From Phycisphaerales bacterium (GTDB lineage Bacteria > Planctomycetota > Phycisphaerae > Phycisphaerales > SM1A02), in the NCBI GenBank assembly GCA_044220875.1, contig JBGAQH010000007.1, positions 31,673-95,672 of the forward strand: a stretch of 64,000 nucleotides of DNA. The letters are read 5' to 3'. How positions within the stretch are numbered: the stretch's first letter is position 1; each line of letters starts with the position of its first letter. Below are positions 2,783 to 52,184 of this stretch, one piece after another. The translations under genes and the position numbers were made by a program. The notes beneath the pieces were generated by a model. It had not been told where the DNA came from and did not search any database. It worked only from the letters and a program-made list of their open reading frames with translations.

Positions 2783-3608
2783 GGGAAGAGACTATCGGAA
2801 TCGCATGGATTTGGCTGAGCGGTGGCCCCGCACCTCCGCGAATGTGCGGGCCGTCCGACTGCTGGGTGATGACCACGCCCGCCATAACCCGAGACGAGTC
2901 TCGGGTTAAGAGACTTCGAGACTCTCGCCCCGAGATCGGCCAACGGGCGCGGACGGTGGTCGCGCGCGACGCGCCAGCCGAGGCTCGGCGAGACGTCGCG
3001 CTCGCGCAGACCCTTGCGATTGCTTGGCCTACCAACGCGAACGCCCGCGAGTTGCCTCGCGGGCGTTCACCGTTCACCAGCGGGTCGGTGGCGTTCCACC
3101 GGACCCAAGAAGTAGTGCGGGGGCAACCCTCTTCGAGTGGATCGGGAGCCTGAACAGAGACTCGGCGGACGCCGCAGCGACTTGCGAGTAGCAGCGCCTT
3201 GGCTCTACTGATCGGCAGCGAGGTTGAGTAGGGGACGGCGGGCAGTGAAGGGCCAAGCGGTCGCCGGAGCGGCCTCTACGCGACCCGAGAGGACTTGATG
3301 GAACTTGAGCGCCCGGCCGCCCCGCCCTCTCAACCGCAACCGCATCATCGGACTTGGGCTGGCGTTGCGTGGCAGACATCACCCGCGAAGGCGGGTGAAC
3401 GGCGGAACGTACGGGCGGACTCCGCGTAGTCCCGTCGGCGGCGCTGCCGCCCACTCCGGCTGCCTGGAGGGATGAAGACCGCGCTCAGTCGAGGAATCTC
3501 TCAGCCACACCCCTACATGCCGATCGCGGCGCCGCGCATACTGCACAAGTACGGATCGACCGGGCTGGTAAGGTCGAGCTCAGCTAAGTCCAGTTACGTG
3601 GAGGTCAG

Positions 3609-5021
3609 ATGCGCCAGTGTACCGTTCCGCAGTTCGCGACTATGCTCGGCATCTTCATCGCCTCAAGCGTGCACGCGCAATGCGAAACCCACGTGTTCGC
3701 CGCGCCCGATCCGAGTGTCAAACTCTTCGGAGGGATCGTCTCGCTTCACGAAGATCGGGCTGCGATCTCCGAGGCGGCGGGGCTAATGGGCTCGCTTCGG
3801 GTATTCGTCAGGAGCGGAGCCTCGTGGGCGCAGGAGGCCGCGATCGCAGATCCCAATCGGGAGCCTTATGCCTCGTTTGGGATCGCATTTCAACTGACCG
3901 GTGACACGCTCATTACGAGCGCATTCGAGAGCGCACTGGTAGCGCCCGGCGAGGGCGCAGTCTATGTCTTCAAGCGAACCGATAGCGGTTGGTGGCTCGA
4001 CCAGGAGATTCGACCGAGTTCACCGGCGAAGTTCTTTGGCTATTCGGTCGCGTTCGATGACCAGACGCTTGTGGTGGGAGCCAATCTCACACCGGTTCCG
4101 GGTCAGGCGGGCAAGGGCTGCGTATTTGTCTTCTCGAAGGTCAACGGCGTTTGGTCGCCGCTGCAGCAGATATTTGCGCCATCTTCGCCTGCGGATACCT
4201 ACTTCGGAAAGCGGGTGTTCCTGCTTGGAGATAGGCTCTACGTCAGCCAGTACCCCACGAACGTGTTCGAGTATCAGCGCAGCCGCGGCGGTTGGGCGCT
4301 CACGCATCAGTTCCAGCCAGTCCCCCAGAGCGCCACGCTCGGGTACGCCGAATCGCTGGCTGCGACCGAGGATTTGCTCGTGGTCGGCGGTAAGGACAGC
4401 ATGGTCCGTGGGCTCAGCACCGGGAACGCCACGCTCTACCGCCGAGCAGCCGGCCGTTGGGATGACGGGCAAATCCTTGCGCCGCCTACCGACGAGGGCC
4501 CGGTCTTCTTTGCGGGAGCCGCGTGTGCGATTGCGGGTGACAAGGTCCTTGTCGGGGCCCCTCTTTCATCCGGTGGAGCGTCGCACTCCGGACGAGTGTT
4601 CGTTTATACAGAAAATGATGGCGGCTGGGGCTTGGCCGGGGAGATCATCCCCGGCACCACGATCGCCGAGGGCAATCTCGGTTGGAGCATCAGCCCCTAT
4701 GGAGACGAGGTTCTCATAGGCCGGTCATTCGCGACGGTACTGTTCGCAGGCTTGGGCGATGAAGACTGCAATGGCAACGGCGCACCGGACGCCTGCGATA
4801 TCACCGACGGAACGTCGTTGGATTTAAACCAGAACGGCGTTCCGGACGAGTGCGAAGCGCCGGGTGATCTCAATGGAGACGGAACGGTTGGCGGAGTAGA
4901 CCTTGGGATTCTTCTCGGCGACTGGGGGCCTTGCGCCGGGTGCCGATCCGATCTCAACGCAGACGGCAATGTAGGCGCTGACGATTTGGCGATACTATTC
5001 TCGTCATGGACGCTCGCGTAG
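3609..5021 (+). CDS. secreted FG-GAP-like beta-propeller repeat protein with C-terminal dockerin/EF-hand-like repeats
   Basis: Signal-peptide-like N-terminus (MLGIFIASSVHAQC). Repeated FGxSVAxxGDxLVVGAP-type units. C-terminal DLNGDGTVGGVDLGILLGDWG and DLNADGNVGADDLAILFSSW. Confidence 0.75.
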   Translation: MRQCTVPQFATMLGIFIASSVHAQCETHVFAAPDPSVKLFGGIVSLHEDRAAISEAAGLMGSLRVFVRSGASWAQEAAIADPNREPYASFGIAFQLTGDTLITSAFESALVAPGEGAVYVFKRTDSGWWLDQEIRPSSPAKFFGYSVAFDDQTLVVGANLTPVPGQAGKGCVFVFSKVNGVWSPLQQIFAPSSPADTYFGKRVFLLGDRLYVSQYPTNVFEYQRSRGGWALTHQFQPVPQSATLGYAESLAATEDLLVVGGKDSMVRGLSTGNATLYRRAAGRWDDGQILAPPTDEGPVFFAGAACAIAGDKVLVGAPLSSGGASHSGRVFVYTENDGGWGLAGEIIPGTTIAEGNLGWSISPYGDEVLIGRSFATVLFAGLGDEDCNGNGAPDACDITDGTSLDLNQNGVPDECEAPGDLNGDGTVGGVDLGILLGDWGPCAGCRSDLNADGNVGADDLAILFSSWTLA

Positions 5022-5069
5022 GGCGTCCGTAACGTCGGGCTAAGTATAAGAAGCTTCGTGAGGTGACCA

Positions 5070-6659
5070 ATGAATGTCGGAGCAGCACTATCGTGTGTCG
5101 TTTCGCTCGCGATTGCGTGCCCTCTTCGCGCGCAGTGTTCCGCTGACGGCAGCGCGCCATCCAATTTTGGATCGTCGTCAGCGACCAGCAATTGGCAGGT
5201 GGGAAACGCGGTCGCTATCAGCGGCAGTCGGATGGCTGTCGGCGCGGCCCTGGGCGACCCGAGCAGCATTCAAGACGCGGGGGCAGCTTGGATTTGGGAG
5301 TACAACTCCGGCTGGTCCGAGGTGAAGGCATTGGTCGATCCCTCACCGTCGTCGTTTGATTGCTTCGGCTTCTCCGTCGCCGTGGCGGGCGATGTAGTCG
5401 CGGTTGGTGTCCCAGACGCGGATGGGGGCGGACACGTCGTAGTCTTCCGGAAATCGGGCGGCACGTGGGACAACGGCACCACCCTCTCGCCCGGCGGTCT
5501 CTCCGAGTCGGGCGCCGATGATTTTGGGTTTGCTGTTGCACTCGACGGCAACACCCTTGTGGTAGGGGATCCGAAGGCCGACTACGGTGCAGGAACCCCC
5601 GGAATCAATCCTGGCCGGATCACCGTATTTGAGTACTCCGGTAACACATGGTCGGAGGTGGCCTATTTTGACAAGCCCGGCACCGCGAAGAACTTCGGCC
5701 ATGCAGTCGCGATCAAGGGCAACTTCATCATCGCGGGAGCGCCGAGCTATGACCTCGCAGACGGTGGAGAAGTGCACGTCTATCGACGATACGGAAGCCC
5801 GGCGACTTGGAACTACTCCGAGGAGATCACCGACGACGGCGACGGCTCCACTCAATACGGTTCGAGCGTCGCTTTCGACAAGGGTGGCGGCGTTGTCGTT
5901 GGAGCGCCGATCGACGGCTCGTACGGCAAGGTGTACGTCTGGAAACTGGCGGGAACGAGCGAGGCGGAGACAGACACCACATGGACTCAGATCGCGGTGT
6001 TGACTCCCTGCTACGAGGCCGATTCTGTGGAGCCTGAGCTCTTCGGCAACGCCGTCGCCGTCCACGGCGACCGCCTCGTCGTCGGATCACGCTACGCCGA
6101 TGTGAACAACGAGCAGAACGCGGGCGCGGCATATTTGTTTGGCCGCGGATGCGGATGGAGCTTGCTATCGACAGTGGTTGATGATGACCCTTCCGACAAC
6201 TACATCCAGGAGGAATTCGGGAAGGGTGCTGGCGTGGGAGGAGGACTCGCGGTCTTTGGATGCCCGGGTGACACCGACACTGCGCCGGATCCGGACCACC
6301 AGAAGGAGGGGAGCTTCACGACCGTCGAGACTGGAGCAGAAGGGTGTCCTGCTGACCTCGACTGCAGCGGGTCGATCGATGCGACTGACCTTGCGACCTT
6401 GCTCGGCGCGTATATGAGCGTTTGCTACGGTTGTGCGGAGGACATCGACCGCGACGGCTCGGTCGGATCGGCGGATCTCGCGATCCTTCTTGGCGCCTGG
6501 GGCGACTGCTTCGGCGACAGCTTTGCGCGGGGCGGCGGTCTGGGCGAGTTGCTCGAAGCGATCGGCTTCGAGAGCGAGGAGGAGTTTGTTAGTTGGTCGG
6601 GCTCAGCCAGCGAAGCCGAACGTGCCGCAATGGTCGCTCTGATTCTCGGCGCGAGCTGA
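5070..6659 (+). CDS. secreted FG-GAP-like repeat protein, paralog of 3609-5021
   Basis: Signal-peptide-like start (VVSLAIACPLRAQC). Same FGxxVAxxGDxxVVGxP repeats. C-terminal DLDCSGSIDATDLATLLGAY and DIDRDGSVGSADLAILLGAWG. Confidence 0.75.
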   Translation: MNVGAALSCVVSLAIACPLRAQCSADGSAPSNFGSSSATSNWQVGNAVAISGSRMAVGAALGDPSSIQDAGAAWIWEYNSGWSEVKALVDPSPSSFDCFGFSVAVAGDVVAVGVPDADGGGHVVVFRKSGGTWDNGTTLSPGGLSESGADDFGFAVALDGNTLVVGDPKADYGAGTPGINPGRITVFEYSGNTWSEVAYFDKPGTAKNFGHAVAIKGNFIIAGAPSYDLADGGEVHVYRRYGSPATWNYSEEITDDGDGSTQYGSSVAFDKGGGVVVGAPIDGSYGKVYVWKLAGTSEAETDTTWTQIAVLTPCYEADSVEPELFGNAVAVHGDRLVVGSRYADVNNEQNAGAAYLFGRGCGWSLLSTVVDDDPSDNYIQEEFGKGAGVGGGLAVFGCPGDTDTAPDPDHQKEGSFTTVETGAEGCPADLDCSGSIDATDLATLLGAYMSVCYGCAEDIDRDGSVGSADLAILLGAWGDCFGDSFARGGGLGELLEAIGFESEEEFVSWSGSASEAERAAMVALILGAS

Positions 6660-6762
6660 CCTCCGGCGAGCGACAGGCGGTAAGAGCAGGTCGAGCAACG
6701 GAGCGTTGGGTCGGTCTCGATCGCCCGAAGAATGTGGCAATTCGAGATCTGGAGATCCATGC

Positions 6763-6798
6763 GGCGCCGCCGAGTCACTCTCGGCGGCGCCTTTATTT
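6763..6798 (+). terminator. Rho-independent terminator
   Basis: 12-bp GC stem ggcgccgccgag/ctcggcggcgcc with a short loop, followed by tttattt. Lies about 100 nt after the stop at 6659. Confidence 0.75.
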
Positions 6799-7095
6799 GA
6801 GCCCCGTCTCTGAGCCGAAGCTCCGTGAGGACGTCATGCCGTCGTGTTGTTGCTGCTCCCGCTGCTGGCGCTCAAGCCGAGGCTGCTGCTCCCACCGCTC
6901 GTCAGGATCGACGGTGCGATCGTGCCGCTGCTCGAGAAGCTCGACCCGCTGCTCTTCGACGAGCCGGACGAGGACGAACTCGACGTGCTGGTCGAACTCA
7001 GCGCCGAGAGCGAGATGTCGTTGTGCGCCCAAACCCCGTCGACCAGCAGAGTGTTCGTCGTGGGAACGTGAATCGCGACGGTCCGCACGCGGCCC

Positions 7096-8235
7096 GTGAT
7101 CGGTCGGCCTGCCGCAACGATCGAATATCGGCCCTTGGAGACTCGACTTCCGGCACCAAGGCTGCTGAGGGAGGTTGCGGGATGTACGCTGAGCGGATGG
7201 GGCCGGTGCTCGCTCGTGCGCTGGCGTTCACCAATGAGGCAGGCGGGTCCCGGATCCCGCGACGCGATGAGGCGCCCGATGGCCAGTTCTCCCGATCCGC
7301 CCGAGAACGCCTACTCCAAGTTCCGTCGGTTCTTTGACGGAAGTGTCGTTGGAGCGGTCCTCGGGATCTTCTTTGGGGAGTTCGATGATCCGGTCGCGAG
7401 AAGGGAGCGCGAGCGGAATGCAGCACGCGAGGACGAGTTCGAAGCGATGTTGGCGGCAAGTGAGGCCGAGAAACTACGACAGCGCACCGCTGCAGCGCAG
7501 CAGATCGTCCCCCCTCCCAGAGCTGGCTCCGCCCCCGCCCGTCTCATCCGTTCAACGAGCCGCACGCGGGCGCCGTCCCTCGGCCAAGCTGTTCTGCGCG
7601 AGGTTCGAACATCTGCCGAATCACCAGGGCCGACAAACGACACGCTGAGATCGACGTTGCCCGCGAAGCCGCTCGCACTCAGCGACGGCAGCCAGCTTGA
7701 TGTCTACTATCTCGACGACTACTACCCGACGCGCGATCACAGGCACTCTTCGCATGCCGCGAGCTGCAACTTACTTCGCCTCAAGGACGATGAGCGTGCC
7801 GGGATCAACTACTTCGCCACGAGGCTGTCTCGATTGCTTGCGCGCGGCACGCTCCTGATTCCGATGCCGGGCCATTCGATTGGCCCTGCCTCTGGAGGCC
7901 TAAGATCGCTCGTTCGGCACTTGAGTCAATCTGGACATGTCGATGGAACGATTTGCTTGGAGCGGCTGACAACGGTCAACAAGTCGGCAGGGGCAGTTTC
8001 AGGCGCGAGGCCAACTGCGGAGATTCACCGTGCGAGCATGCACGTACCCCACCCCCTTCTAGTCCGCGGGCGCCATGTGGTCCTTCTCGACGACGTCGTG
8101 ACGAGGGGCTGCTCGATGCGCGGAGCGACGTATCACCTCAGGAAGGCCGGAGCGGCGAGCGTCATCTGCCTTGCACTGACGCGCACAGTGAGCGATCGTA
8201 GCGACCAGTCAGGAAGCGAGGACTCCGCACCTTGA
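7096..8235 (+). CDS. ComF-like phosphoribosyltransferase (PRTase); start uncertain
   Basis: C-terminal PRTase signature HVVLLDDVVTRGCSMRGA. The N-terminal ~180 aa are low-complexity, so the true start may be internal. Stop overlaps the next gene by 4 nt. Confidence 0.65.
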   Translation: MIGRPAATIEYRPLETRLPAPRLLREVAGCTLSGWGRCSLVRWRSPMRQAGPGSRDAMRRPMASSPDPPENAYSKFRRFFDGSVVGAVLGIFFGEFDDPVARRERERNAAREDEFEAMLAASEAEKLRQRTAAAQQIVPPPRAGSAPARLIRSTSRTRAPSLGQAVLREVRTSAESPGPTNDTLRSTLPAKPLALSDGSQLDVYYLDDYYPTRDHRHSSHAASCNLLRLKDDERAGINYFATRLSRLLARGTLLIPMPGHSIGPASGGLRSLVRHLSQSGHVDGTICLERLTTVNKSAGAVSGARPTAEIHRASMHVPHPLLVRGRHVVLLDDVVTRGCSMRGATYHLRKAGAASVICLALTRTVSDRSDQSGSEDSAP

Positions 8236-9227
8236 CCCACAGCCGCCAAAATGCCGATCGGGATCGCGCGAGATATCTGATCGCGCTGATGGAGTTACCC
8301 AAGATTGGCCGCCGACGATCGCTCTCGATCGCGCGAACCTCACCCGATCCGCCTGCTACGGCGTCCGAACTGCATGCCCGGCTAGCCAGCGTCCGCCACT
8401 CGATCCCGGGTCTTCCCGAGTACACACTGGACGAGGTCGATGCCGCGATGCGAGGTGCAGACGCCGTTGCAGAGCGCTGTTCGACGGAGGCCATCCAGGT
8501 CATGACCGCATGGGGCGGCGCAGTTGCACCGGCTGTCTGGGGGATCCCGGATCCGCCAGCGGTTCTTTACGCAAGGGGGAATCTGGAGTGCGTCGCGATG
8601 GGCTTGGCCGTCGCCATCGTCGGAACTCGCGAGCCCACTCCATACGGTCAAGGAGTGTCACGGCGATTCGCCCAGCGCTGCGCGGAGCGATCCGTTTGCG
8701 TAGTCAGCGGACTGGCAATCGGCTGCGATTCGCTTGCGCATGAGGGGTGTCTCGACGCTCATGGCCGGACGGTCGCGGTACTTGCGCACGGGTTGGACAC
8801 TGTGTATCCGCTCTCAAGCCGCTCGCTCGCTGCCCGAATTCTCGATGAAGGAGGGATGCTGGTCAGCGAGTACCCTCCTGGAGTCGGGATGCGTCCGAAC
8901 CAGCTAGTTGAGCGTGATCGACTCCAGCCTGGCTTGAGCGGGGGGTTGATTGTCATTGAGACGGATATCAAGGGCGGCACGATGCACGCGGTTCGTCAGG
9001 CCAGGGAGCAGAAGCGCCCGGTAGCGTGCCTTCAGCATCCCGCTCACCTGCTCAAAGAGGCAAAGGCCCAAGGTAACCAATCGCTGATCCTTCGCGGTGA
9101 TGCGGTGCCGCTTGCGAGTGGAGATGATCTGGGAGCATTTCTGGACGGGCTCCCCCGGGTCGATGCGAGCTCGCCAAACACCCAGTCGAGTCCGATTCAG
9201 CTTGACCTATTCCATGCAAAGCCCTGA
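8232..9227 (+). CDS. DprA/Smf-like (SLOG/Rossmann) protein, divergent
   Basis: GTREPTPYGQGV…VVSGLAIGCDSLAHEG…TVAVLAHGLDTVYP…LVSEYPPG matches the DprA core. The usual FPxRNR and VVEAxxxSGS motifs are altered (LVERDR, VIETDIKGGT). Confidence 0.75.
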   Translation: MTHSRQNADRDRARYLIALMELPKIGRRRSLSIARTSPDPPATASELHARLASVRHSIPGLPEYTLDEVDAAMRGADAVAERCSTEAIQVMTAWGGAVAPAVWGIPDPPAVLYARGNLECVAMGLAVAIVGTREPTPYGQGVSRRFAQRCAERSVCVVSGLAIGCDSLAHEGCLDAHGRTVAVLAHGLDTVYPLSSRSLAARILDEGGMLVSEYPPGVGMRPNQLVERDRLQPGLSGGLIVIETDIKGGTMHAVRQAREQKRPVACLQHPAHLLKEAKAQGNQSLILRGDAVPLASGDDLGAFLDGLPRVDASSPNTQSSPIQLDLFHAKP

Positions 9228-9765
9228 TGCGCGCCGATTACAGCATGAGGCTGTGCCGGCAGGTCTGATCTTGGATCTTGACCAGACGCTGATCGATTCG
9301 AGATCTGCGGCCGATCTTCGGCGCATGCGCCGCTGGTCCCAAGCTCGGGCCATGATTCCAACGTTCGCAATCCTACCCGGCGTTAGGCAGCTCTTGGCGA
9401 CACCACGGCCGTTCAGGATCGCAGTCGTTACCACATCACCGCGACCGTATGCAAAAGCGGCAATGGAGCGGCTCCAGATCGAGGGTGAACCGCTGGTTGC
9501 CTATCACGATGTGCGTCATCACAAGCCGAATGCCGCGCCCATGCTTAGGGCGCTTGAACTTCTTGGTCTATGTGCGGCTAGCGTCTGGGCTATCGGCGAC
9601 AGCCCTAGCGACACCGCCTCCGCGAGGAGTGCTGGCATTCGATCAATCGGCGTGCTTTTCGCCGCCGAAGACAGGGGAGGGCTCGGAGACTCTCGGCCAG
9701 ATCTGCTCGTAGAGTCCATTGAGGAGCTCTGCTTCAATTGCCTTCGGCGGGATCTACGACAGTAA
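9214..9765 (+). CDS. HAD-superfamily phosphatase
   Basis: Motif I LILDLDQTLIDS, then HHKPNAAP, then motif IV AIGDSPSDTASARSAGI. The ATG at 9214 overlaps the dprA-like 3' end by 14 nt. The track ORF 9097 start lies inside the upstream gene. Confidence 0.7.
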   Translation: MQSPDARRLQHEAVPAGLILDLDQTLIDSRSAADLRRMRRWSQARAMIPTFAILPGVRQLLATPRPFRIAVVTTSPRPYAKAAMERLQIEGEPLVAYHDVRHHKPNAAPMLRALELLGLCAASVWAIGDSPSDTASARSAGIRSIGVLFAAEDRGGLGDSRPDLLVESIEELCFNCLRRDLRQ

Positions 9766-9786
9766 CGTCTGAGCCGTTCTGTCTCG

Positions 9787-10218
9787 TCACCACCGAGAGA
9801 GCGGACACGTCGCATCCGGCATCGTGAGCTTCACGCTCAACGCCGCCCGCTTCCTTGTCCCGCATCCACACAGCCCGCAGAACCCGATCGGGTCATCGGG
9901 ATGCCTGACGAGCCCGCGACAGGTCTCGCAGGCCAGCCTCCTCCGCTCGGACTGCTCGTCCGCCACCTGGCCGTGGACAAGAAGTGACAACTCCGCCTTC
10001 GCGTAGGACGCGACGCGCTTCAGGATCCCGGGCGTCGGCGGCGGTTCGATTGCGGTCTCGCCAACCGGCCGGCCGCTTCGCGCGTCGATCCGTGTCTCGC
10101 AGTCGACCGCCGCGACGCGCTCCATGTAGGGGCGCTCCGCAGCCCAGTCGTCGGGCGCGACGAGATGCCGCACACCACCGCTCGGCAGTCTGATCCGATA
10201 GACCGCGCACTCACTCAT
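9787..10218 (-). CDS. phage distal-end protein with C-terminal Cys cluster
   Basis: ATGA overlap with the upstream gene at 10215-10218. C-terminus CETCRG…FCGLCGCG…ATCP. The longer track ORF (to 10932) overlaps the Cys-rich gene and is rejected. Confidence 0.55.
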   Translation of the reverse strand: MSECAVYRIRLPSGGVRHLVAPDDWAAERPYMERVAAVDCETRIDARSGRPVGETAIEPPPTPGILKRVASYAKAELSLLVHGQVADEQSERRRLACETCRGLVRHPDDPIGFCGLCGCGTRKRAALSVKLTMPDATCPLSRW

Positions 10219-11402
10219 GGCTCGGGACACTCCGGAAGTGACGGCTCGGGAGTCGGGTCGCCCGGCAGCCGCGTGCGGCAGTTCCGCTGCGATTCGTCCC
10301 ACGTGCAGCCGGTCGGTCCCACGCGCTCGAGCGTGCAGACGTGCGTCGGCAGTTCGAGGCACTGGTAGCCGTCCTCGATGTCGCAACTGAGCCGCGCCCA
10401 GAGGCGCGGGTGGCAGCAGATGACGCCGCCGTCGCACCGCGAGAGGTCGAGCGTGATCGTCGCCTGGCATCCCGGATCCCACTCGTCGGGGATCGAGCAG
10501 CACGGGTCGTTCGAACACGCGTCGACGCCGCAGGCGACGATCGTGCCCGAGGAGTCGAGGATCTGCTGGCCGGGAGCCGTCTCGCTCGTGCAGGTCGTGT
10601 CGGGACCGAAGCTGCACGCCCCGATGCAGAAGGGGCAATCGACGATCGCGAGCGGATCGCAGACGAAGTGCCATCCGAGCGCGGGTCGCGCCGCGATGTA
10701 GACGTCGCCCGACGGCGTGACGTAGCCGCACGGGAGGTCGCTGACGGGCCGGTGGTCCTCGGGCACGACGCAGCCGACCTGGTTCTCGAACTTCTTGCAG
10801 CCCGAGCAGACCCACCACCACTCGAGCGGGAAGATGCACTTGATGGACCCGCCCTCGTCGAGGAGCTCCTGCACCGACGGTGAGACCTCGGCGGTGACGA
10901 AGACGATCACGCGGTGGCAATAGGTGTCGCATCCGCCGCCGGGCGGGTCGTCACCGCCGCCCGGATCCGGAGGCGTCCAGCCCGGTCCCGGCGGCTCGAT
11001 CAGGATCGGCGTCGGGATCGCGTTGACGGGCTCGCACTCGTCGAACTCGGTCACGATGCAGTACTCCTCGGCGATCGCCTCGTACTCGACCCAGAGGTCG
11101 CTCGCCTGGGCGCTCGACATGCTGCCGCAGCAGTAGGTGTGCGTCAGGAACGGCGGGTTGCAGTCATCGAAGCAGGCGAAGGAGACGCCGCCGAAGTTCG
11201 TCGGTGGGAGGCCCGGTCGCGGGATCGTCAATCGGATCCGGTCGCCCGGTCGGTAGCAGCATCCGCCGCTCGCGTGCGTCTCGCCGACGAGGCAGCGGCA
11301 GCAGGGCGCTCCGCAGCAGCAGTCCACGCCGGCGGCCTCGTCGAGGAGCTTCGTCTGGCGGCGGGCCACCGCCCGCTCAAGCCTCAGGACACGCTTCGCC
11401 AT
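10215..11402 (-). CDS. extremely cysteine-rich putative tail-tip/receptor-binding protein
   Basis: About 40 Cys in 395 aa by manual count (VDCCCGAPCCRC, YCCG, DCPFCIGAC, DPCCS, VICCH). Its start lies immediately after the stop of the upstream tail gene. Position is distal to the tape measure protein. Confidence 0.65.
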   Translation of the reverse strand: MAKRVLRLERAVARRQTKLLDEAAGVDCCCGAPCCRCLVGETHASGGCCYRPGDRIRLTIPRPGLPPTNFGGVSFACFDDCNPPFLTHTYCCGSMSSAQASDLWVEYEAIAEEYCIVTEFDECEPVNAIPTPILIEPPGPGWTPPDPGGGDDPPGGGCDTYCHRVIVFVTAEVSPSVQELLDEGGSIKCIFPLEWWWVCSGCKKFENQVGCVVPEDHRPVSDLPCGYVTPSGDVYIAARPALGWHFVCDPLAIVDCPFCIGACSFGPDTTCTSETAPGQQILDSSGTIVACGVDACSNDPCCSIPDEWDPGCQATITLDLSRCDGGVICCHPRLWARLSCDIEDGYQCLELPTHVCTLERVGPTGCTWDESQRNCRTRLPGDPTPEPSLPECPEP

Positions 11403-13028: not shown

Positions 13029-15014
13029 TCACTCCTGAAACACGAGTCCGTTGTCGGAGGCCTTGTCGAGGAGGCGGCGCAAGAGCCGGGCCGAGTCCTC
13101 GCTCGACTTCGCGATCCGTTCGAGCGGCCCGCCGCCGCCCGACTGGAGGCTCTGGGTCGCGGCTGCGCTGAAGGTGCCTCGCACCTCGGAGCGCTGCTGC
13201 GCCTGGCCGAATCCGGCGAGGATGTCGTCGATGGCGGGAATCCCTCGGCGGTCAGGTGTCGACGCGTCGCTTGAGGCTCGGGCGGCACGGGCCGCCTCGA
13301 TCGCCTGGGCGAGTTCTGCTTGGGCGGCGGCGAGCTCCCTCGCGTTCTCCGCGAGGGCGGCATCACGGGCAGTCGTGATCCGCTCTTGGTCTTGGACGAG
13401 TCCCTCGCCGATCGCCTTGATCGCCGCATCGCGCCGGGCCTCGGCGGCGGTGAGTCGGCCCTCGAGTCGCTTCGCGATCTCTTCTTCGTTCGAGCGGTTC
13501 GTCGCGTCGATCGCGGACCGGTTCCGCGCGGAGTCATCGCGCCGGGCCTTCTTCGCCGCTTCGACATCGAGCGTCGAGTCGACGAGGCCCATGAGTTCAA
13601 GGAGCCGGTCGGCAAGCCACCCGGTCACCGACTCGAACGCCGACCAGAAGGTCGACACGAGGGCGTTCCAGATCCGTCCGACGAAGGCCATCGCCTCAGC
13701 GGCGGCGGTCTCAAAGCCGCTCCAGATCTCGATGGCCCAGATCCGCGCGCCGCCGAAGACCTCGCTCGTCGCGGTCGCGAACCACGCCTTGAACTCGGTC
13801 CAGCGGTCCTCGAGAAAGTTGATGCCGCGGATCCACTCTGCCCGTATGCCGAGCCACGCGACGCGCGCGGCGAGCGCGAGGTCGCCCGCCATGAGGGCGT
13901 CACCGACCGCGCCGATGACGCTTGTGACCCGCTCCCTGAGTTCGGCGAATCGCTCGCCGAGCCAGGCGATCGCCGTGCCGCCGGCGCCTGAGAAGTACAT
14001 GATGGCAGCGGTCGCGCCGGCGGCGAGCGCGACGACGATCCCGAGCGGGGAGGCGAGGAGGAGGAACGCGGCCTTCGCGAGGAGCACCGCCTTCACGGCG
14101 AGGCCGAACGCGGTCGCGATCCCGCCGATGGCCGTCCCGAGGAGCGAGATGCCGAAGCCGACGCCGACGAGCGTCACGCCGACGAGGCCGACGACCGCGA
14201 CGACCTTCGCTGCGGTGACGACGAGGTCCCGATTCGCGCGGATCCACGCGACGATGCCCCCGACGACATGAGCGGCTCTCTCGGCGAGTTCCGTGACGAC
14301 CGGCGCGAGCGCCGCCCCGATCTGGAACGCGGCCGCCTTCGCGCTTCGTGCGAGGAGGTTGAGGGTGTCGTTCAGGAGCGCGGCGCTCTTGGCCTCGTCC
14401 GCCGAGACGGAGACTCCGAAATCGCTCGCCTGCTTGCGGAGTTCGGCGATGCCTTGGGAGCCCTCCTCGAGGAGCGGGATGAGGCTCGCTCCGGCCTTGC
14501 CGAAGACGCCGATCGCGGCGGCCGCGCGCTCGGCGGGATTGGTGATGGCCATGATCCGGTCGGCGACAAGCGACAGCTGGTCCTCGGGCGAGAGATTCGC
14601 AAGCGCACCAGCCGAGAGTCCGAGCTTGCCCAGTGCGTCGGCAGCGGAAGCGCTGCCCTCGCCGGCGGCGACCACCGTCCGCTGCATGACGCGGAGACCC
14701 TTCTCGAGGGTCTCGATGTCGCTGCCGGACTGCTCGGCCGCGAAGCCGAGTTCGGACACGGCCTCGACCGAGAGGCCGGTCCGGATCGCGGCCTTGTCGA
14801 GCGAGTCGCCGAAGTCACTGAAGAGCTTCACTCCCGCGACGAACGGGGCGCTCGCGGCAGCGGCCACGCCGGCCAGGGCGAGGCCGATGTTCCGGATCGA
14901 CGCACCGAAGGCCTTGAGTCGGGCCTCGGCGGCGCGAAGCGCCTTCGTGAACTTGTCGTCGACGCCGAGCTCGACGTAGGCCCGGCCCGCGCGGATGCCA
15001 GAGGATTTGGTCAC
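13029..15014 (-). CDS. tail tape measure protein
   Basis: 661 aa, Ala/Gly-rich helical protein with central hydrophobic segments. The N-terminal region FGDSLDKAAIRTGLSVEAVSELGFAAEQSG is typical of TP901-type tape measure cores. Confidence 0.85.
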   Translation of the reverse strand: MTKSSGIRAGRAYVELGVDDKFTKALRAAEARLKAFGASIRNIGLALAGVAAAASAPFVAGVKLFSDFGDSLDKAAIRTGLSVEAVSELGFAAEQSGSDIETLEKGLRVMQRTVVAAGEGSASAADALGKLGLSAGALANLSPEDQLSLVADRIMAITNPAERAAAAIGVFGKAGASLIPLLEEGSQGIAELRKQASDFGVSVSADEAKSAALLNDTLNLLARSAKAAAFQIGAALAPVVTELAERAAHVVGGIVAWIRANRDLVVTAAKVVAVVGLVGVTLVGVGFGISLLGTAIGGIATAFGLAVKAVLLAKAAFLLLASPLGIVVALAAGATAAIMYFSGAGGTAIAWLGERFAELRERVTSVIGAVGDALMAGDLALAARVAWLGIRAEWIRGINFLEDRWTEFKAWFATATSEVFGGARIWAIEIWSGFETAAAEAMAFVGRIWNALVSTFWSAFESVTGWLADRLLELMGLVDSTLDVEAAKKARRDDSARNRSAIDATNRSNEEEIAKRLEGRLTAAEARRDAAIKAIGEGLVQDQERITTARDAALAENARELAAAQAELAQAIEAARAARASSDASTPDRRGIPAIDDILAGFGQAQQRSEVRGTFSAAATQSLQSGGGGPLERIAKSSEDSARLLRRLLDKASDNGLVFQE

Positions 15015-41922: not shown

Positions 41923-43665
41923 ATGCCGGGCGAAGCAAAGGATGCCGTGCGACGAGAAGTCGTCTCTGCGCTGAACACTGTTGCCCGGCGCCATGGGCTT
42001 GAAGTCGCCGAGAGTGGCAAGACGGCCCGGATGCGCGAGCTCGACGCTGCCGCGGGCTATTGGGCGGAGCCCACCACGGTGACTGCCAAGCCGCCTCGGT
42101 GGATCATCCAGTTGGCTGCTCATAGAGGTGACTGGATCGCCAGTGTGCCGAACTTGCCCGGGTCACGGCGCACCGCCTACTTCAACACTGCGAATCGGTA
42201 CGTCGGCGTCGGCTGCTTTCGCATAGCCCTCGCGGTGAAGTGGGACGACGTTCCAAGCTTCGCGTTTCCGTCCGATTGGGATTGGCTTCTATGGTTCGCG
42301 TTTAGTCCCGCACTGCGGAACGGTAGCAGTGGTCAGTTGTTGGATGACTTCGATCCATCGACCGGCATTCTCACCTATATGGGGCAACGCCAGCCGTATG
42401 TAGCAGCGGGGCTCGTCTGCCTTTCCCCGCCCACCGAGGAGTTTGCAATTGCTGGTCGCACCCTCACATACGGGCAGGCCACCGAGGCAATTCAGGGCCT
42501 CATTCATGTGGCTCCTCAAGTGTCGGTCGGTGGCGCTGCTCCGGCCGTGATGCCCATGGCTTCGATCGATGTCTTCGATGCGACCAACACCGCCTCTCGG
42601 CTTCTCTTGACGGAGAAGCTGGACGCTGCGTTCCGCGACGCGAAGACTTCCACGGCGGACGCGGAGGGCGACGGACTCGGAGGCGGAGCTCGCATTCCCG
42701 AGTTTCCGGGGCTCATCGGGTTGCCGCCATCTATCTCTCGGCAGATCGAGGCAGCGCTCAACTCGGGCAAGCGGCATCTGATGCTCTACGGCCCGCCCGG
42801 CACGGGCAAGACCACGCTCGCGCAACTTGTCGCTGGGTGCCTCGCAGATCAGTGGAAGTTGATCACCGCCTCCGCGGACTGGACTTCCCAAGACATCATC
42901 GGAGGCTACATGCCTCTGGAGGGAGGGAGGCTCAGGTTCTTGCCCGGAATTCTCCTTTCGAACTTCGACAGGCCGCTCATCATTGACGAGCTGAATCGCT
43001 GCGACATCGACAAGGTGATCGGGCCGCTGTTCACCGTGCTCAGTGGACACCCGACGACCCTTCCCTACCTAACCGAGCCCGGGAACCCGGAGTCGCCGAG
43101 ATACACGATTCTGCCGGAATCCAAGCCGGATCGCTCGCCTCACGAGTTCGCGCCGTCGCGCGACTGGCGGCTGATCGCGACGATCAACACTGTTGACAAG
43201 TCGTCGCTGTACCAGATGTCGTACGCCCTCTCCCGTCGGTTCGCATGGATCTTCGTGGATGTGCCAGCTTCCACATCCGGCTTCCTACTGGAGTGGCTGA
43301 GGTCAAAGGGCATGATCCCGGCGGATGGTGACTTGCCCACCTCAATCCCACTCGGGCAAGTCTGGGCCGCAGTCAACGCGATTCGGCCGCTTGGCCCCGC
43401 TCCCGCGATCGATTCAGTCATGTACATGAGGTCGGCAGCAGGAGACGAGACCGTGGATCAGTTGGCGCCGATCACCGGTGCCGAAGACGCTCGCGTGGAG
43501 ATGATCGTAGATGCTCTGGTTGTGTTCTTCCTTCCTCTCCTCGACGGCATTAGTCGGCAGGAAGGGGAGACGCTTGTGAGCGACGTTCGGGCCGCGCTTT
43601 CGCTCGCCCCTGAGCATGCGCTCGCGGATCGTCTTCGGCGATCCGTGCTCGCGATTTGCATATGA
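41923..43665 (+). CDS. McrB-like AAA+ (GTPase-type) protein with unknown N-terminal domain
   Basis: Walker A LMLYGPPGTGKT. McrB-type Walker B LIIDELNRCDIDKVIGPLFTVL. Also ATINTVDKS…ALSRRFAWIFV. The N-terminal ~270 aa are unassigned. GGAGAG Shine-Dalgarno sequence. Confidence 0.75.
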   Translation: MPGEAKDAVRREVVSALNTVARRHGLEVAESGKTARMRELDAAAGYWAEPTTVTAKPPRWIIQLAAHRGDWIASVPNLPGSRRTAYFNTANRYVGVGCFRIALAVKWDDVPSFAFPSDWDWLLWFAFSPALRNGSSGQLLDDFDPSTGILTYMGQRQPYVAAGLVCLSPPTEEFAIAGRTLTYGQATEAIQGLIHVAPQVSVGGAAPAVMPMASIDVFDATNTASRLLLTEKLDAAFRDAKTSTADAEGDGLGGGARIPEFPGLIGLPPSISRQIEAALNSGKRHLMLYGPPGTGKTTLAQLVAGCLADQWKLITASADWTSQDIIGGYMPLEGGRLRFLPGILLSNFDRPLIIDELNRCDIDKVIGPLFTVLSGHPTTLPYLTEPGNPESPRYTILPESKPDRSPHEFAPSRDWRLIATINTVDKSSLYQMSYALSRRFAWIFVDVPASTSGFLLEWLRSKGMIPADGDLPTSIPLGQVWAAVNAIRPLGPAPAIDSVMYMRSAAGDETVDQLAPITGAEDARVEMIVDALVVFFLPLLDGISRQEGETLVSDVRAALSLAPEHALADRLRRSVLAICI

Positions 43666-44912
43666 GCGACCTCTCGCCAATCATTGATGGGGCGATCATT
43701 CGCGTGCTTCTCCGGTACTTCAGAAGAGGCTCGCGAGTCGTCCTGCCACCTGGAGTCCGGACCGCGCGAGAGGACGCGGGACTGGTGATGATGCACTGGG
43801 CGATGTCGGCCGAGGTAGAACGGCTGGCGACGCGTCTTGCAATGAGTCCACACGAGGCCGATCTGGTGCTCGCTCAAGAGCGATCCGAATCTGATGGAAT
43901 CGCGCGAGGACGAATCGACGCGCGCAGCACGCTGTTAGTCCAGTTGCGGAGCGGTGATCATGGCCGCACAGTGTCCTTCGCGCCATCTAGGCATGCCGAT
44001 CATGGCGCCAACCGATTGATCGTCTGGGTCTTGAAGCGAGCGTCACAGTTGCTCGATCAAATCGAGGGGTTGATGGAGGACGGTAGCCCTTATCTCGAGC
44101 GGTGTACTGCCATTCGCTCGTCGGTCGCGAGAGCATCGCGGTTCTCGCGGGTGTCCGAACTCTTTCGGACGCTCCGTCTCTCCGACCGGCCTTGTGCGGG
44201 TGACGTGCGGCATGCAGCTACGCATCGAAAAGGCACCTACCGGCTCGGCGCCGCAGCATACTTGCGGCTAACCGCGATCGAGCGGGGAGACGAGTCCGCA
44301 GTAGCTGCGACGCTCCACGATTCTGTCATCGCGCCACTGGAGCCCTGGCGACGATTCGAGCTTCTCACCGCCTTGGCAGTGGCGGAGGAACTCTCGCGCG
44401 CCAGTACCGAGCCTCTGACACTGGAGATCCTGGGTTCCGGCGGTGCTTTAAGGCCGCTCGCCCGCTGTCGACCATATGAGGTCTTCTGGCAAGCTCGCAC
44501 CTCGTACTACACCGAACCTGGGCCGGAGCCGTCTGAACAAATCGCGGCGGGCATCTGTGAGGACTTCGGAATCTCTTGTGGAGCAGACCGACCGGATGTC
44601 GTGGTGGTCGACGCAGTGGCCAGGCGCGTAGTGGCGATCGCGGAGGCCAAGTTCATCGGCGGAACGGCGGGCTACGAGTCTGGCCCGTTTACGGACGCCG
44701 TGCTCCAACTTGTTAGGTATGCGCGAGGCTACGATCCGGGCGTTCTTGCACGGTCAGTGATCGCGATGTCGAGGCTCCCTGCGCAGGTCTGCGTCGGAAG
44801 TCCAAGTGGTCGGTCACCGTTCGCGATCGATCTCGCCGGGTTGCTCAGTGGCGAGCTGGCTAGATGGAATCCGTCGGTTCGTTCCCTCATCGACCTCCCC
44901 GATGCAACGTGA
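43656..44912 (+). CDS. McrC-like PD-(D/E)xK nuclease partner
   Basis: 10-nt overlap with the McrB-like gene. C-terminal DRPDVVVVDAVARRVVAIAEAKF fits the PD…ExK pattern. Confidence 0.6.
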   Translation: MHMSDLSPIIDGAIIRVLLRYFRRGSRVVLPPGVRTAREDAGLVMMHWAMSAEVERLATRLAMSPHEADLVLAQERSESDGIARGRIDARSTLLVQLRSGDHGRTVSFAPSRHADHGANRLIVWVLKRASQLLDQIEGLMEDGSPYLERCTAIRSSVARASRFSRVSELFRTLRLSDRPCAGDVRHAATHRKGTYRLGAAAYLRLTAIERGDESAVAATLHDSVIAPLEPWRRFELLTALAVAEELSRASTEPLTLEILGSGGALRPLARCRPYEVFWQARTSYYTEPGPEPSEQIAAGICEDFGISCGADRPDVVVVDAVARRVVAIAEAKFIGGTAGYESGPFTDAVLQLVRYARGYDPGVLARSVIAMSRLPAQVCVGSPSGRSPFAIDLAGLLSGELARWNPSVRSLIDLPDAT

Positions 44913-45056
44913 TGCCATGTAGTGGAGGCGCAGCGTTGCCGACCCAGTGAGGCCGGAGCATCGCCGCGGCCAGGGGCACATCCTCACGAGTGGTATGCGG
45001 CACCCCCGCGAGATCGCCCCGGGCGTGCCGCCTCCGACCATGTCCGCAACGCCGTC

Positions 45057-46289
45057 TCAGCGTGCTATCGCTAAGTCTGAATCACGAGGCGCTGACTTCC
45101 GCGACGCAGAACCGCGCTTACCCGACTCGCCTGTGCCCAGACGAGCTGGCTCGGCTCCGTCCACCAACGAGCACGGCGCGGAGATCTGGTACGAGCCCTG
45201 AGCGGGCGTTGATGGCCGTGGCTCTCGCAGGAACCTCGACTGCCCGCCCTTCAGGAAGTTCGCGTCAAGCTCACAGCAAATCCACTTGCGGTTCAACCTG
45301 TCGCAGACCTCACCAGTGACGCACGATCCTGCAAACGGATCGAGCACCACATCGCCTTCATCCGTGAGCATTCTCACGAAGTACTCGGGGAGGAGCGAAG
45401 GGAATCGTGCCGGGTGGATCGGGAGCTCGTGCTCCCGGCAATATGCCTGATAGTGGCTATTCGATTCCGTGTTTGCGATGGCGAGTAGGTTTGGCGGAAC
45501 CGAACCGCCGTTGTGGCGCTGGAACTTTGTAGAGATGTCGTGTCCCGACGGTCGCAGCGCGGCCTTGTATCCGTTCTTTAGAAGATGTTCCATCGCTGGC
45601 GAGTAGGGTGCGAGCACTCGGCGGTTGTCAGCCTTCGGCCACGGACTCGGCGACAGCCACCAGACGCAATTGACCGCGTCCTTCACGCGAATTCTTCGGA
45701 TGTTCACCCACTCTGCAGGCGTTGGAAGTTTCGATGGACTCCACCAGTAGTGCTCCTGACAGAGATGGAATCCAAACTCTCTGCATAGGCTGATGAGCAA
45801 CTCGAAGTGGTAGAGCGACCGCGTCGGGGTGCCGGGCTTCCACGCACCGCCGATGTCGATCACGAGGCTCCCTTGCTCCTTGAGCACGCGGTGGAATCCC
45901 GCCGCGAATGGCCTGAACCAGTCGACGTACTGGTCTGCGTCCTCGTTGCCGTATGACTTCTTCCGCACCAGTCCGAAGGGCGGTGATGTGACGATCAGGT
46001 CTACCGAGCGCGGAGCGAGCGTCTTCAGGAGCAGACCACGCGAGTCGCCGTGGTAGATCGTGCCGCGACGAACTCGCGCAAAGACCTTCGGCTCGTCAAC
46101 CTCGCAGGCTCCGGGCGCCCGCGTCGCAGCGTGTTCCGCCAGGTGGCGCCGGTGGAGGGACCGAACATACTCGCTGATGGTCGGAAACCCTGCCTCCTCG
46201 GCGGCCTTCTGCATCGCGGCGTGTTCGGGTTCTGTCAGGCGGACGTTCGCGGTCGCTGACCGGGGAGTGGCTGCTCTGGGCCTAGGCAT
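45057..46289 (-). CDS. DNA methyltransferase (SPPF motif, N4-cytosine-like) with N-terminal ribbon-helix-helix domain
   Basis: N-terminus RLTEPEHAAMQKAAEEAGFPTISEYVRSL (RHH-like). Motif IV DLIVTSPPFGL. Motif I VVLDPFAGSCVTGEV. Confidence 0.8.
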   Translation of the reverse strand: MPRPRAATPRSATANVRLTEPEHAAMQKAAEEAGFPTISEYVRSLHRRHLAEHAATRAPGACEVDEPKVFARVRRGTIYHGDSRGLLLKTLAPRSVDLIVTSPPFGLVRKKSYGNEDADQYVDWFRPFAAGFHRVLKEQGSLVIDIGGAWKPGTPTRSLYHFELLISLCREFGFHLCQEHYWWSPSKLPTPAEWVNIRRIRVKDAVNCVWWLSPSPWPKADNRRVLAPYSPAMEHLLKNGYKAALRPSGHDISTKFQRHNGGSVPPNLLAIANTESNSHYQAYCREHELPIHPARFPSLLPEYFVRMLTDEGDVVLDPFAGSCVTGEVCDRLNRKWICCELDANFLKGGQSRFLREPRPSTPAQGSYQISAPCSLVDGAEPARLGTGESGKRGSASRKSAPRDSDLAIAR

Positions 46290-46332: not shown

Positions 46333-46806
46333 CTAGTGGGTTCTTGTGTGACAAGAACGCTCCGACGGAATATCGCGTCGAAGCCGCGCCCACTTGAGTC
46401 GCTGCCCCGCCCAGCGTCTCTCTTGCACCACCTGTCGTAGGTCGCGCTCGCTCAACTGGCCGCGGCCGCATGGCAGGCCGGGGAGCAGGAGGATCTCCTC
46501 CTGAATGTCTGGCGCGAGGTGCAGCAGGTTCATGATCTGTGTCATCCGTGGCTGGGTCACGCGAGCGAGCTTGGCGAGCTCCGACTGGTTCGCGACGACG
46601 CCTTCCCGAAGCAACTCATCGAATCGGATCGCCAACGCCATCAGCCGAGCAACGCGCGGGACGCGGCCGTCGTTGGCGTCCGCGACGACTCTTGAACTGC
46701 CGGATGGCTCGGGCGGGTATGAGCCCGGGCCGGCGGCCGTGGCCACGACGGCCCGCTTGCGGCGGTCCCTCGTCGTGAACCGGATCGATCGGGTGACGGT
46801 CGTCAT
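46333..46806 (-). CDS. HTH protein of the recombinase module
   Basis: …NQSELAKLARVTQPRMTQIMNLLHLAPDIQEEIL… 4-nt overlap with the recombinase stop. Confidence 0.6.
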   Translation of the reverse strand: MTTVTRSIRFTTRDRRKRAVVATAAGPGSYPPEPSGSSRVVADANDGRVPRVARLMALAIRFDELLREGVVANQSELAKLARVTQPRMTQIMNLLHLAPDIQEEILLLPGLPCGRGQLSERDLRQVVQERRWAGQRLKWARLRRDIPSERSCHTRTH

Positions 46807-48386: not shown

Positions 48387-48889
48387 CGCTCGCCCTCGAG
48401 GCGGAAGAACCGGAACCCGTTCAGGTGGCTCCCGGTCACCTTCTTGGCGACGGCGGTGAGCGTGCGGAAGCGTTCGCCGTTCCATTCGAAGCCCTCGTCC
48501 TTGGGCAGGACCAGCACGCGAATCGTGCGGCCCTTGTACTCGCGGACGATTGCAGAGCCCGCGGGCGGCAGGCGTCGATCATCGTGGTCGTCGCCGTGGA
48601 CGCGGCGGCGAACGGTCTTCGCGGTGCCCGACTGCGGCGGGCTGACCAGCGTCTTCGGGGCCATGACCCGCACCTCGGCGTCGTCGGCCAGTTCGGCGGC
48701 CCGACGTCGTGCCCGTTCGCTGAGGTCGCCCTCGGCGTTGGCCTGAATGCGCCAAGCGATCTTCCGGATGAGGTACTGCCGGTGGCGGGTGCGGCATGGG
48801 TAGCCGTGGACCTCGGCGAAGCGCTCGACGAGCTCCGTCGTGGTCATGCGCTCGAGCGCGTTGATCTGGTCTTCGATGGACTCCGGCAT
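48383..48889 (-). CDS. DUF2924-family protein
   Basis: …TTELVERFAEVHGYPCRTRHRQYLIRKIAWRIQA… and …EYKGRTIRVLVLPKDEGFEWNGERFRTLTAVAKKVTGSHLNGFRFF…. Confidence 0.7.
   Translation of the reverse strand: MPESIEDQINALERMTTTELVERFAEVHGYPCRTRHRQYLIRKIAWRIQANAEGDLSERARRRAAELADDAEVRVMAPKTLVSPPQSGTAKTVRRRVHGDDHDDRRLPPAGSAIVREYKGRTIRVLVLPKDEGFEWNGERFRTLTAVAKKVTGSHLNGFRFFRLEGER

Positions 48890-52110: not shown

Positions 52111-52184
<74 letters not shown>

Follow-up and report, generated by a model that had tools for sequence, protein, structure and literature searches.

The stretch of DNA analysed here (the window) comprises 64,000 nucleotides (nt) of a Phycisphaerales bacterium (GenBank assembly GCA_044220875.1, contig JBGAQH010000007.1, positions 31,673 to 95,672 of the forward strand) and carries an operon of three co-directional genes on the forward strand, which we regard as a probable relative of the ShosTA toxin-antitoxin system borne by a prophage. 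The genes encode a phosphoribosyltransferase (PRTase; 7096/7279-8235), a DprA-like protein (8232-9227) and a small phosphatase of the HAD type (9214-9765), for which Pfam returned Pribosyltran (7.1e-08), DNA_processg_A (5e-55) and HAD_2 (4.4e-17), respectively. The gene junctions were read directly. The TGA stop of the PRTase gene (8233-8235) overlaps the TTG start of the DprA-like gene at 8232 by 4 nt, and the ATG of the HAD gene at 9214 precedes the stop of the DprA-like gene (9225-9227), giving an overlap of 14 nt. The third open reading frame (ORF) is open from 9097 and its TAA stop ends at 9765; the start was taken at ATG 9214, while a later GTG immediately before the DLDQT motif is also possible and would replace the overlap by a short gap. 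An intergenic gap of 21 nt (9766-9786), at which the G+C content of third codon positions (GC3) changes sharply, separates the HAD stop from the last phage-side gene, which lies on the reverse strand and ends, convergently, at 9787. These overlaps and the gap had been described in an earlier reading of the letters without database searches (the sequence-only reading), and so had the VVLLDDVVTRG motif and the missing zinc finger of the PRTase, the altered FPxRNR and VVEA..SGS motifs of the DprA-like protein and the DLDQT motif of the HAD protein; all of these descriptions were borne out.

Upstream of the operon, a terminator-like hairpin at 6763-6791 of the forward strand follows a gene for an FG-GAP-repeat protein; its stem has 12 pairs, 11 of them G-C, and is followed by a T run. 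The operon would thus start a transcription unit separate from that of the FG-GAP gene. A scan of 6500-10300 found no sigma-70-like promoter, although such a scan is little informative for this phylum.

The longest ORF of the PRTase gene begins with GTG at 7096, whereas the gene caller placed the start at ATG 7279, resulting in a protein of 318 amino acids (aa) (P0001); the nearest homologues favour 7279. The Pribosyltran match covers residues 263-368 of the long ORF, and the PRTase domain occupies approximately 7681-8235. As a predicted toxin, the protein matched the PADLOC ShosT model PDLC03962 with an E-value of 1.2e-17 and the E. coli-type ShosT model PDLC03012 more weakly (0.018). All 24 short PRTases from related loci matched the same ShosT model. 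The AlphaFold2 model of the PRTase domain had a mean confidence (pLDDT) of 88.8, and the first three PDB matches of a Foldseek search with it were the ShosT structures 8zvc, 8zvd and 8zvb (E-values from 7.5e-7 to 1.3e-5), with APRT at rank 4 and ComF (7p0h) at rank 27. In a profile-profile comparison by hhalign, the short-PRTase family aligned with residues 225-357 of the long ShosT proteins at an E-value of 8.8e-9. The two aspartates of the loop that binds phosphoribosyl pyrophosphate (PRPP) are invariant in the family (D137/D138 of alignment A3), and the block RHTTAxKS..R aligns with CLERLTTVNKS..GAR in the K280/R285 region of ShosT, the register of the arginine being uncertain by one position. 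The PRPP-binding residues needed for ShosT toxicity thus appear to be retained in the window protein. The more ordinary sequence searches reached less far: a phmmer search of PDB with the window PRTase missed ShosT, the short-PRTase profile reached ShosT by the generic PRPP loop only (8.5e-4), and a homologue search with the full protein returned two relatives only.

With the ComF model TIGR00201 of NCBIfam, the PRTase scored 27.5 bits, far under the cut-off of 233.55, over the last 41 model positions only; no cysteine cluster of the ComF zinc-finger type was found in the N-terminal part of the PRTase. By Pfam, the protein is also without a HAD domain and so differs from ShosT, in which the HAD and PRTase parts form one polypeptide.

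The DprA-like gene (8232-9227, forward strand) encodes the predicted antitoxin. Its product matched the PADLOC ShosA model PDLC03961 at 3.7e-63 and, more weakly, the E. coli-type ShosA model PDLC02997 at 9.1e-26, and its best PDB sequence match was ShosA (9vzo/8zva, 1.5e-25), ahead of bona fide DprA. The motif changes hold across the alignment of the whole DprA-like family, in which FPxRNRII has become (F/L)VERDR(L/I)Q and VVEA..SG[SA]LIT has become V(I/V)ETDIKGGTMH. The resulting R(I/L)Q and GT.H signatures are common to E. coli ShosA and the three-gene family and are absent from canonical DprA. The arginines R139 and R234, by which ShosA binds single-stranded DNA (ssDNA), correspond to R133 and R228 here and are invariant in all 25 sequences of the three-gene type; judged from the alignment, the window protein therefore seems to retain the arginines critical for the antitoxin.

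The window protein is set apart from canonical DprA in several ways. It scored 172.7 with the dprA model TIGR00732, under the cut-off of 191.15, while the same genome has a better-scoring canonical DprA on another contig (C11, 237 bits) and a ComF-like gene on a third (C6). A separate canonical DprA was likewise present in all five other genomes with a three-gene locus that were checked. In the maximum-likelihood tree, the canonical DprA clade (support 100/96), which includes the C11 copy of this genome, excludes the window protein. The E. coli-type ShosA proteins form a clade of their own (100/100), as do those of the three-gene type (94/90), and the window protein pairs with that of a Phycisphaerales metagenome-assembled genome (100/95). 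The sequence-only reading had named the presence of housekeeping copies elsewhere and the position in the tree as points to be looked at, and both came out on the side of a non-housekeeping gene.

The third gene (9214-9765, forward strand) encodes a small-cap HAD phosphatase, modeled by AlphaFold2 with a pLDDT of 90.3. Among 22 aligned HAD proteins of the family, the residues of motifs I to IV (DxDxT, T/S, K and GDxxxD) were invariant, namely D21, D23 and T25, T73/S75, K104, and G128-D129..D133. By its motifs the protein appears catalytically intact and is a predicted phosphatase. The cap is very small, consisting of two short helices (residues 30-46), in which R36 and W41 are family-invariant. 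No PADLOC model was matched by the HAD protein, and it remained below every NCBIfam equivalog cut-off. Its family profile matched HAD-IA phosphatases among the PDB sequences at 1e-19 to 1e-13, and Foldseek of the model matched HAD-IA phosphatases at E-values of 5e-10 to 5e-8. The top fold match was AlnB (4ex6), a phosphatase acting on a ribosyl-5-phosphate adduct, and HDHD1A (3l5k) was also matched, the margins among the HAD-IA folds being small. ShosT did not appear in the 60 listed matches of the profile to PDB sequences; the 50 matches listed for the fold search are all generic HAD proteins and do not decide whether ShosT would be matched as well.

ShosTA, also called Shosta or the DprA-PRTase system, is known from hotspots of P2-like prophages (Rousset 2022, PMC9122126), and structures are available as 8zva-8zvd, 9vzo and 9w2p. 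Experiments have shown the E. coli genes to act as a toxin and its antitoxin and to protect against phages (PMC9122126, PMC11961720). E. coli ShosT has 424 aa, of which residues 1-164 form an N-terminal hydrolase domain resembling the HAD-type pyrophosphatase BT2127 and the remainder a C-terminal PRTase (Pu 2025, PMC11961720). Mutation of the PRTase abolishes toxicity, and mutation of the hydrolase lowers it marginally (PMC11961720). The residues needed for function are D331/D332, K280 and R285 of ShosT, and R139 and R234 of ShosA (Yang 2026, PMC12961424). The toxin acceptor and the role of the N-terminal hydrolase were left open by both structural papers (PMC11961720, PMC12961424).

For the comparison of the HAD gene with this domain, the E. 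coli P2-like prophage locus and related plasmid loci were fetched, the long ShosT proteins were aligned, and the families were compared profile against profile. The HAD family aligned by hhalign with residues 2-155 of the long ShosT proteins over the full domain, with a probability of 95% and an E-value of 4e-8. In the long proteins the first aspartate of motif I, the nucleophile, is replaced by serine or glycine, so that the domain is degenerate, whereas the motif is intact in the split family. Further ShosTA work is reportedly that of Kimelman (2012) and Millman (2022).

The two enzymes also occur in one chain. The short-PRTase profile, searched against 1.84 billion representatives, gave 547 cluster representatives at E <= 1e-30, and one of them, P0024 (349 aa), is a single-chain Rosetta-stone protein: its N-terminal half belongs to the same HAD family (E-value 1.4e-27), with DLDNT intact and the R..W cap present, and its C-terminal half to the same PRTase family (2e-53). 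A locus of Arcobacteraceae (L031) similarly has a HAD-PRTase fusion beside a ShosA-like gene; in the tree, this locus and a sequence from a Klebsiella plasmid take a basal position in the three-gene clade. On account of the profile alignment and P0024, we consider the HAD protein the counterpart of the N-terminal domain of ShosT; it is, as far as sequence comparison can tell, the same functional module as the fused and degenerate HAD-like domain of the E. coli toxin.

Loci of this kind were scanned with one genome per species, which gave 26 loci with a relative of the DprA-like protein at 36-49% identity. The carriers belong to Planctomycetota, Bacillota, Bacteroidota, Cyanobacteriota, Pseudomonadota, Armatimonadota, Ignavibacteriota, Campylobacterota and the archaea. 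In 23 of the 26, the gene that immediately follows the DprA-like gene encodes a HAD homologue, so the HAD gene is conserved next to homologues, a point on which the sequence-only reading had made its view of the HAD gene depend. A separate HAD gene together with a separate short PRTase gene (~180 aa) was found in 21 loci, and one further locus ends before the position of the HAD gene. The loci with a HAD gene come from Planctomycetota, Bacillota, Bacteroidota, Cyanobacteriota, Pseudomonadota, Armatimonadota and one methanogenic archaeon. Among 80 viral contigs with a DprA-like gene, 23 also have the other two modules at a distance of no more than 1.5 kb, and at least four layouts occur (with A for the DprA-like gene and PRT for the PRTase: PRT-A-HAD, A-HAD-PRT, A-[HAD-PRT] and [HAD-PRT]-A). 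Across the examined loci, the HAD is either a fusion partner of the PRTase or the product of a gene beside it. The profile alignment, the P0024 and L031 fusions and the viral layouts together argue that the HAD protein belongs to the system and has a functional link with the PRTase. The same cassette is also found on plasmids and on chromosomes with no phage genes nearby. The operon DNA itself was not found in 30 relatives, eight of them of the same genus.

The operon adjoins the backbone of a prophage (9787-41740, reverse strand), in which PHROGs and Pfam identified genes for tail, head and replication functions: a tape measure protein (13029-15014), a protease-capsid protein, a portal protein, TerL, a ParB-methyltransferase, a primase-polymerase, a helicase, an AAA_24 protein and an M78 peptidase. 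GC3 is 0.8-0.95 in the backbone. The genome has a G+C content of 68.3%; that of the operon is 60-63%, with a GC3 of 0.60-0.69, against 0.83-0.95 in the adjacent phage genes and 0.83 in the convergent neighbour itself, a gene encoding a cysteine cluster (9787-10218, reverse strand). A large serine recombinase and probable integrase (46803-48485, reverse strand; Pfam Resolvase, Recombinase and Zn_ribbon_recom) has a 62%-identical homologue in another genome of the genus (G002).

The ends of the element were placed at a tRNA-Met gene. An intact tRNA-Met (CAT anticodon; 52111-52184, reverse strand) was found by ARAGORN and marks the attR side. The probable attL (3113-3124) is preceded by a displaced downstream flank of the tRNA (2864-3112), whose final ~10 nt correspond to the tRNA 3' end. 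Within this flank, 2864-3101 is 86.7% identical to the sequence adjoining tRNA-Met in the same-genus genome G001, and in alignment A5 divergence begins after TAGTGCGGGG, at the tRNA 3' end (~3113-3124). In G002, a related prophage, with the 62%-identical recombinase and phage genes, occupies the same tRNA-Met. The repeat GGGTGATGACCA (at 2864 and 51962) was rejected as the att core, since the 12-mer and near copies of it are scattered over the genome, and blastn-short between the element flanks gave nothing significant. The simplest reading of these alignments is a single prophage of ~49 kb in tRNA-Met, spanning ~3125-52110, with the operon inside. A composite of two elements is a less simple possibility, as short internal att sites would escape detection. 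The att mapping and the GC3, lower than that of the phage backbone, indicate that the operon is prophage cargo; together with two FG-GAP genes it occupies the tail-distal arm as low-GC cargo. The proposal of the sequence-only reading that this is prophage cargo rather than a housekeeping locus is thereby upheld.

We consider it likely, with a probability of roughly 0.78, that the operon is a toxin-antitoxin or abortive-infection module of the ShosTA family, carried as cargo in the tail-distal arm of the prophage. The pair had been recognized without searches as DprA-PPRT, a synonym of ShosTA, and the PADLOC ShosT and ShosA matches agree with this. On the other hand, calling the HAD gene an undescribed extension with additional chemistry was an overstatement, as E. 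coli ShosT already has an N-terminal HAD-like hydrolase/pyrophosphatase domain (PMC11961720) with which the HAD family aligns over its whole length.

On the E. coli model (PMC11961720, PMC12961424), the PRTase would use PRPP to phosphoribosylate an acceptor, by which nucleotide metabolism would be disturbed and DNA damaged. The DprA-like protein, probably acting with RecA or other proteins of recombination, would bind ssDNA and in this way offset the damage without binding the toxin. An infecting phage that shuts off host expression or floods the cell with ssDNA would abolish the effect of the antitoxin, and the cell would die before the phage matures. The HAD protein would act on the side of the toxin, with the PRTase, a role that is favoured because HAD proteins are repeatedly fused to the PRTase. 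It could hydrolyze the released pyrophosphate and so pull the transfer forward, as a pyrophosphatase of the kind proposed for E. coli, or it could remove the 5'-phosphate from the phosphoribosylated product.

The second option can be taken a step further. The HAD protein could be a dedicated 5'-phosphatase of the PRTase product, the real ShosT-type toxin being a dephosphorylated non-canonical riboside or a re-phosphorylated derivative of it, two steps from PRPP. We put this forward as a tentative idea, with the odds rather against it. If it is true, the system would be a small pathway of antimetabolite synthesis rather than a mere sink for PRPP or purines, R36 and W41 of the cap would recognize the base, and the separate and intact enzyme would allow the acceptor of ShosT to be sought directly.

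Several observations weigh against placing the operon in the ShosTA family. The window PRTase superimposes on the ShosT structures with a TM-score of only ~0.5, which means a distant relation, and it can be aligned with E. coli ShosT only at the level of profiles or folds. It also has an extra N-terminal region of ~135 aa, of low complexity and with one short hydrophobic stretch. The DprA-like proteins share ~35-40% identity with the E. coli model over the core, and the tree places the three-gene clade as far from E. coli ShosA as from canonical DprA or farther, so that only the R(I/L)Q and GT.H motifs, present in both ShosA groups, suggest their common descent. The HAD family is nearer in sequence to generic HAD-IA phosphatases (1e-19) than to the N-terminal domain of ShosT, which would allow for an independent recruitment of the HAD module. 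In E. coli, the hydrolase domain is without the nucleophile aspartate and its mutation lowers toxicity only marginally; its role may not carry over to the window protein. Toxicity, neutralization and phage defence of the window operon would all be transferred by analogy from this distant model.

Among the other explanations, the one that fares best accepts the DprA-like protein as antitoxin and makes the HAD protein a second antitoxin or detoxifier, which would dephosphorylate the toxic PRTase product alongside it. The gene order is in its favour, as it is the antitoxin gene, rather than the toxin gene, with which the HAD gene is translationally coupled, both in the window and at most of the split loci. 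No catalytic residue has been lost, and the closest folds include the phosphatases of ribosyl-5-phosphate adducts AlnB (4ex6) and HDHD1A (3l5k). However, the same HAD family is fused to the PRTase in P0024, L031 and several viral loci, E. coli ShosT is built likewise, and a detoxifier fused to its toxin is not to be expected. Moreover, mutation of the E. coli domain slightly lowers toxicity instead of raising it. We therefore regard a detoxifying role as unlikely.

It is still less probable that the operon is a phage module of nucleotide metabolism or DNA modification, producing a modified nucleoside for the benefit of the phage itself, e.g., for resisting restriction. Such a role would suit a location inside a prophage and the frequency of these modules on viral contigs, and PRTases of this type gave weak PADLOC matches to DpdF-type PRTase-like models; the ShosT acceptor, left open in the structural papers, would also leave room for it. 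Yet the operon and the phage backbone are transcribed towards each other and have unlike compositions, as would be the case for a moron; the same cassette resides on plasmids and chromosomes away from phage genes, and the homologous E. coli pair has been found by experiment to be an anti-phage toxin-antitoxin (PMC9122126, PMC11961720).

Housekeeping competence genes, comF and dprA/smf beside an unrelated phosphatase gene, can practically be dismissed, as the Pfam and NCBIfam names DprA and ComF are outweighed by scores under the cut-offs, the missing ComF zinc finger, the canonical DprA and ComF-like gene elsewhere in the genome, the position outside the canonical clade, the failure to find the operon in the 30 relatives, the location inside a prophage and the position of the HAD gene, conserved across phyla.

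The ShosTA-family module preferred here is a known system in a different layout, with split genes and intact HAD motifs, and not a new kind of defence. In the literature searched, ShosTA is described as a two-gene system, in which the HAD is mentioned only as one of the ShosT domains or in the labelling of a figure legend; the split layout with an intact HAD was not found there, and an earlier mention of the three-gene linkage in comparative genomics is possible. The separate HAD protein with every catalytic residue argues that phosphatase chemistry is ancestral and integral to the toxin module, in which case the E. coli hydrolase domain would be a degenerate derivative. The split family would also be a simpler experimental system, as the two enzymes can be separated for finding the substrate and the product. 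In annotation, the third component will go unnoticed by defence-finding tools whose Shosta model comprises two genes.

Variable N-terminal extensions are frequent on short ShosT-type PRTases. That of P0003 consists of a transmembrane helix, an acyl-carrier (PP-binding) domain and an acidic linker, P0083 has a transmembrane anchor, P0100 has TPR repeats, and the PRTase of locus L026 has a domain of ~325 aa of no assigned type. The ~135-aa low-complexity N-terminus of the window PRTase may belong to the same class of add-ons. A membrane anchor in the window protein was considered and not supported, as the hydrophobic stretch is short and the 19-residue Kyte-Doolittle maximum is 1.25.

Some related loci depart from the common layouts. 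Two tandem paralogues of the short PRTase lie upstream of the ShosA-like gene in some viral three-gene loci (IMG/VR contigs L080 and L082-L084). On plasmid pBma45 of Bermanella marisrubri (L037, 1769-2996), which belongs to the E. coli-type clade, a HAD-like protein (154 aa) and a PRTase (204 aa) are annotated separately after ShosA; either the split is natural, or a long ShosT gene has undergone a frameshift. In several plasmids of Klebsiella and Raoultella (L038; H10-H15), IS26 comes immediately after a DprA-like gene related to the three-gene clade, and the toxin partner of this gene seems to have been lost or replaced.

The prophage carries further genes that stand out from its backbone. 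Between attL and the operon (3609-6659, forward strand), two secreted FG-GAP-repeat proteins with dockerin-like C-termini are encoded with a GC3 of ~0.70-0.72, similar to that of the operon; such proteins are an unusual phage cargo. Beyond the other end of the backbone, a McrB-like AAA_5 ATPase gene (41923-43665) is coupled to a gene for a 418-aa partner with no Pfam match (43656-44912), and a DNA methylase with a NikA-like N-terminus follows this pair (45057-46289, reverse strand). These low-GC genes (41923-46289) are flanked by the phage regulatory region and the integrase gene and probably represent another defence cargo of this prophage. A 529-aa protein with TPR repeats and a HEPN_LA2681 domain (1e-72) is encoded between the serine recombinase and tRNA-Met (50186-51775, reverse strand); HEPN domains of this kind are usually linked to defence.

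To the left of the window (G000:C5:14000-30800), a second serine recombinase is found together with paralogues of the phage replication genes. It is 62% identical to the recombinase of the G002 prophage, the same value as for the recombinase of the window, which suggests a second related prophage or a remnant of one. Between this recombinase and attL, a low-GC cassette (60-2782) contains two N6/N4 methylases and a 435-aa ORF.

Compared with known systems, the HAD protein has the core fold and the catalytic motifs of the HAD-IA phosphatases (the inorganic pyrophosphatase BT2127, PpaX, the phosphoglycolate phosphatases and AlnB), but its cap is much smaller, with R36 and W41 invariant, and it invariably occurs in linkage with a PRTase and a DprA-like gene. 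Canonical DprA/Smf and ComF share with the window proteins the Rossmann-type DprA fold, the ssDNA-binding arginines and the type I PRTase fold, whereas the window proteins lie under the curated cut-offs and outside the canonical clade, with altered FPxRNR and VVEA..SGS motifs and no zinc finger. PsyrTA (RqlHI) likewise combines a DprA-like antitoxin with a PRTase-containing toxin, and PsyrA (1.9e-26) and PsyrT (6.7e-05) were secondary PADLOC matches. However, the PsyrT match is confined to the last 45 residues, i.e., the PRPP loop (model positions 643-687), and the RecQ-like helicase fused to the PRTase in the PsyrTA toxin has no equivalent in the window PRTase by Pfam, so the operon was not assigned to PsyrTA.

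The closest resemblance is to ShosTA. A DprA-like ssDNA-binding protein, a non-canonical PRTase with PRPP-binding residues and a HAD fold are common to both, the genes are tightly coupled and prophage-borne, and the PADLOC models of ShosT and ShosA are matched. The window differs in having three genes in the order PRTase - DprA-like - HAD, while E. coli (locus L033) has ShosA followed by the HAD-PRTase fusion. Its PRTase is short, with a core of ~180 aa, plus the extra N-terminal region in the window protein, and its DprA-like clade is separate from that of E. coli ShosA. Finally, the HAD protein of the window has the full catalytic set, in contrast to the ShosT proteins of the E. coli type, from which the nucleophile aspartate is missing.

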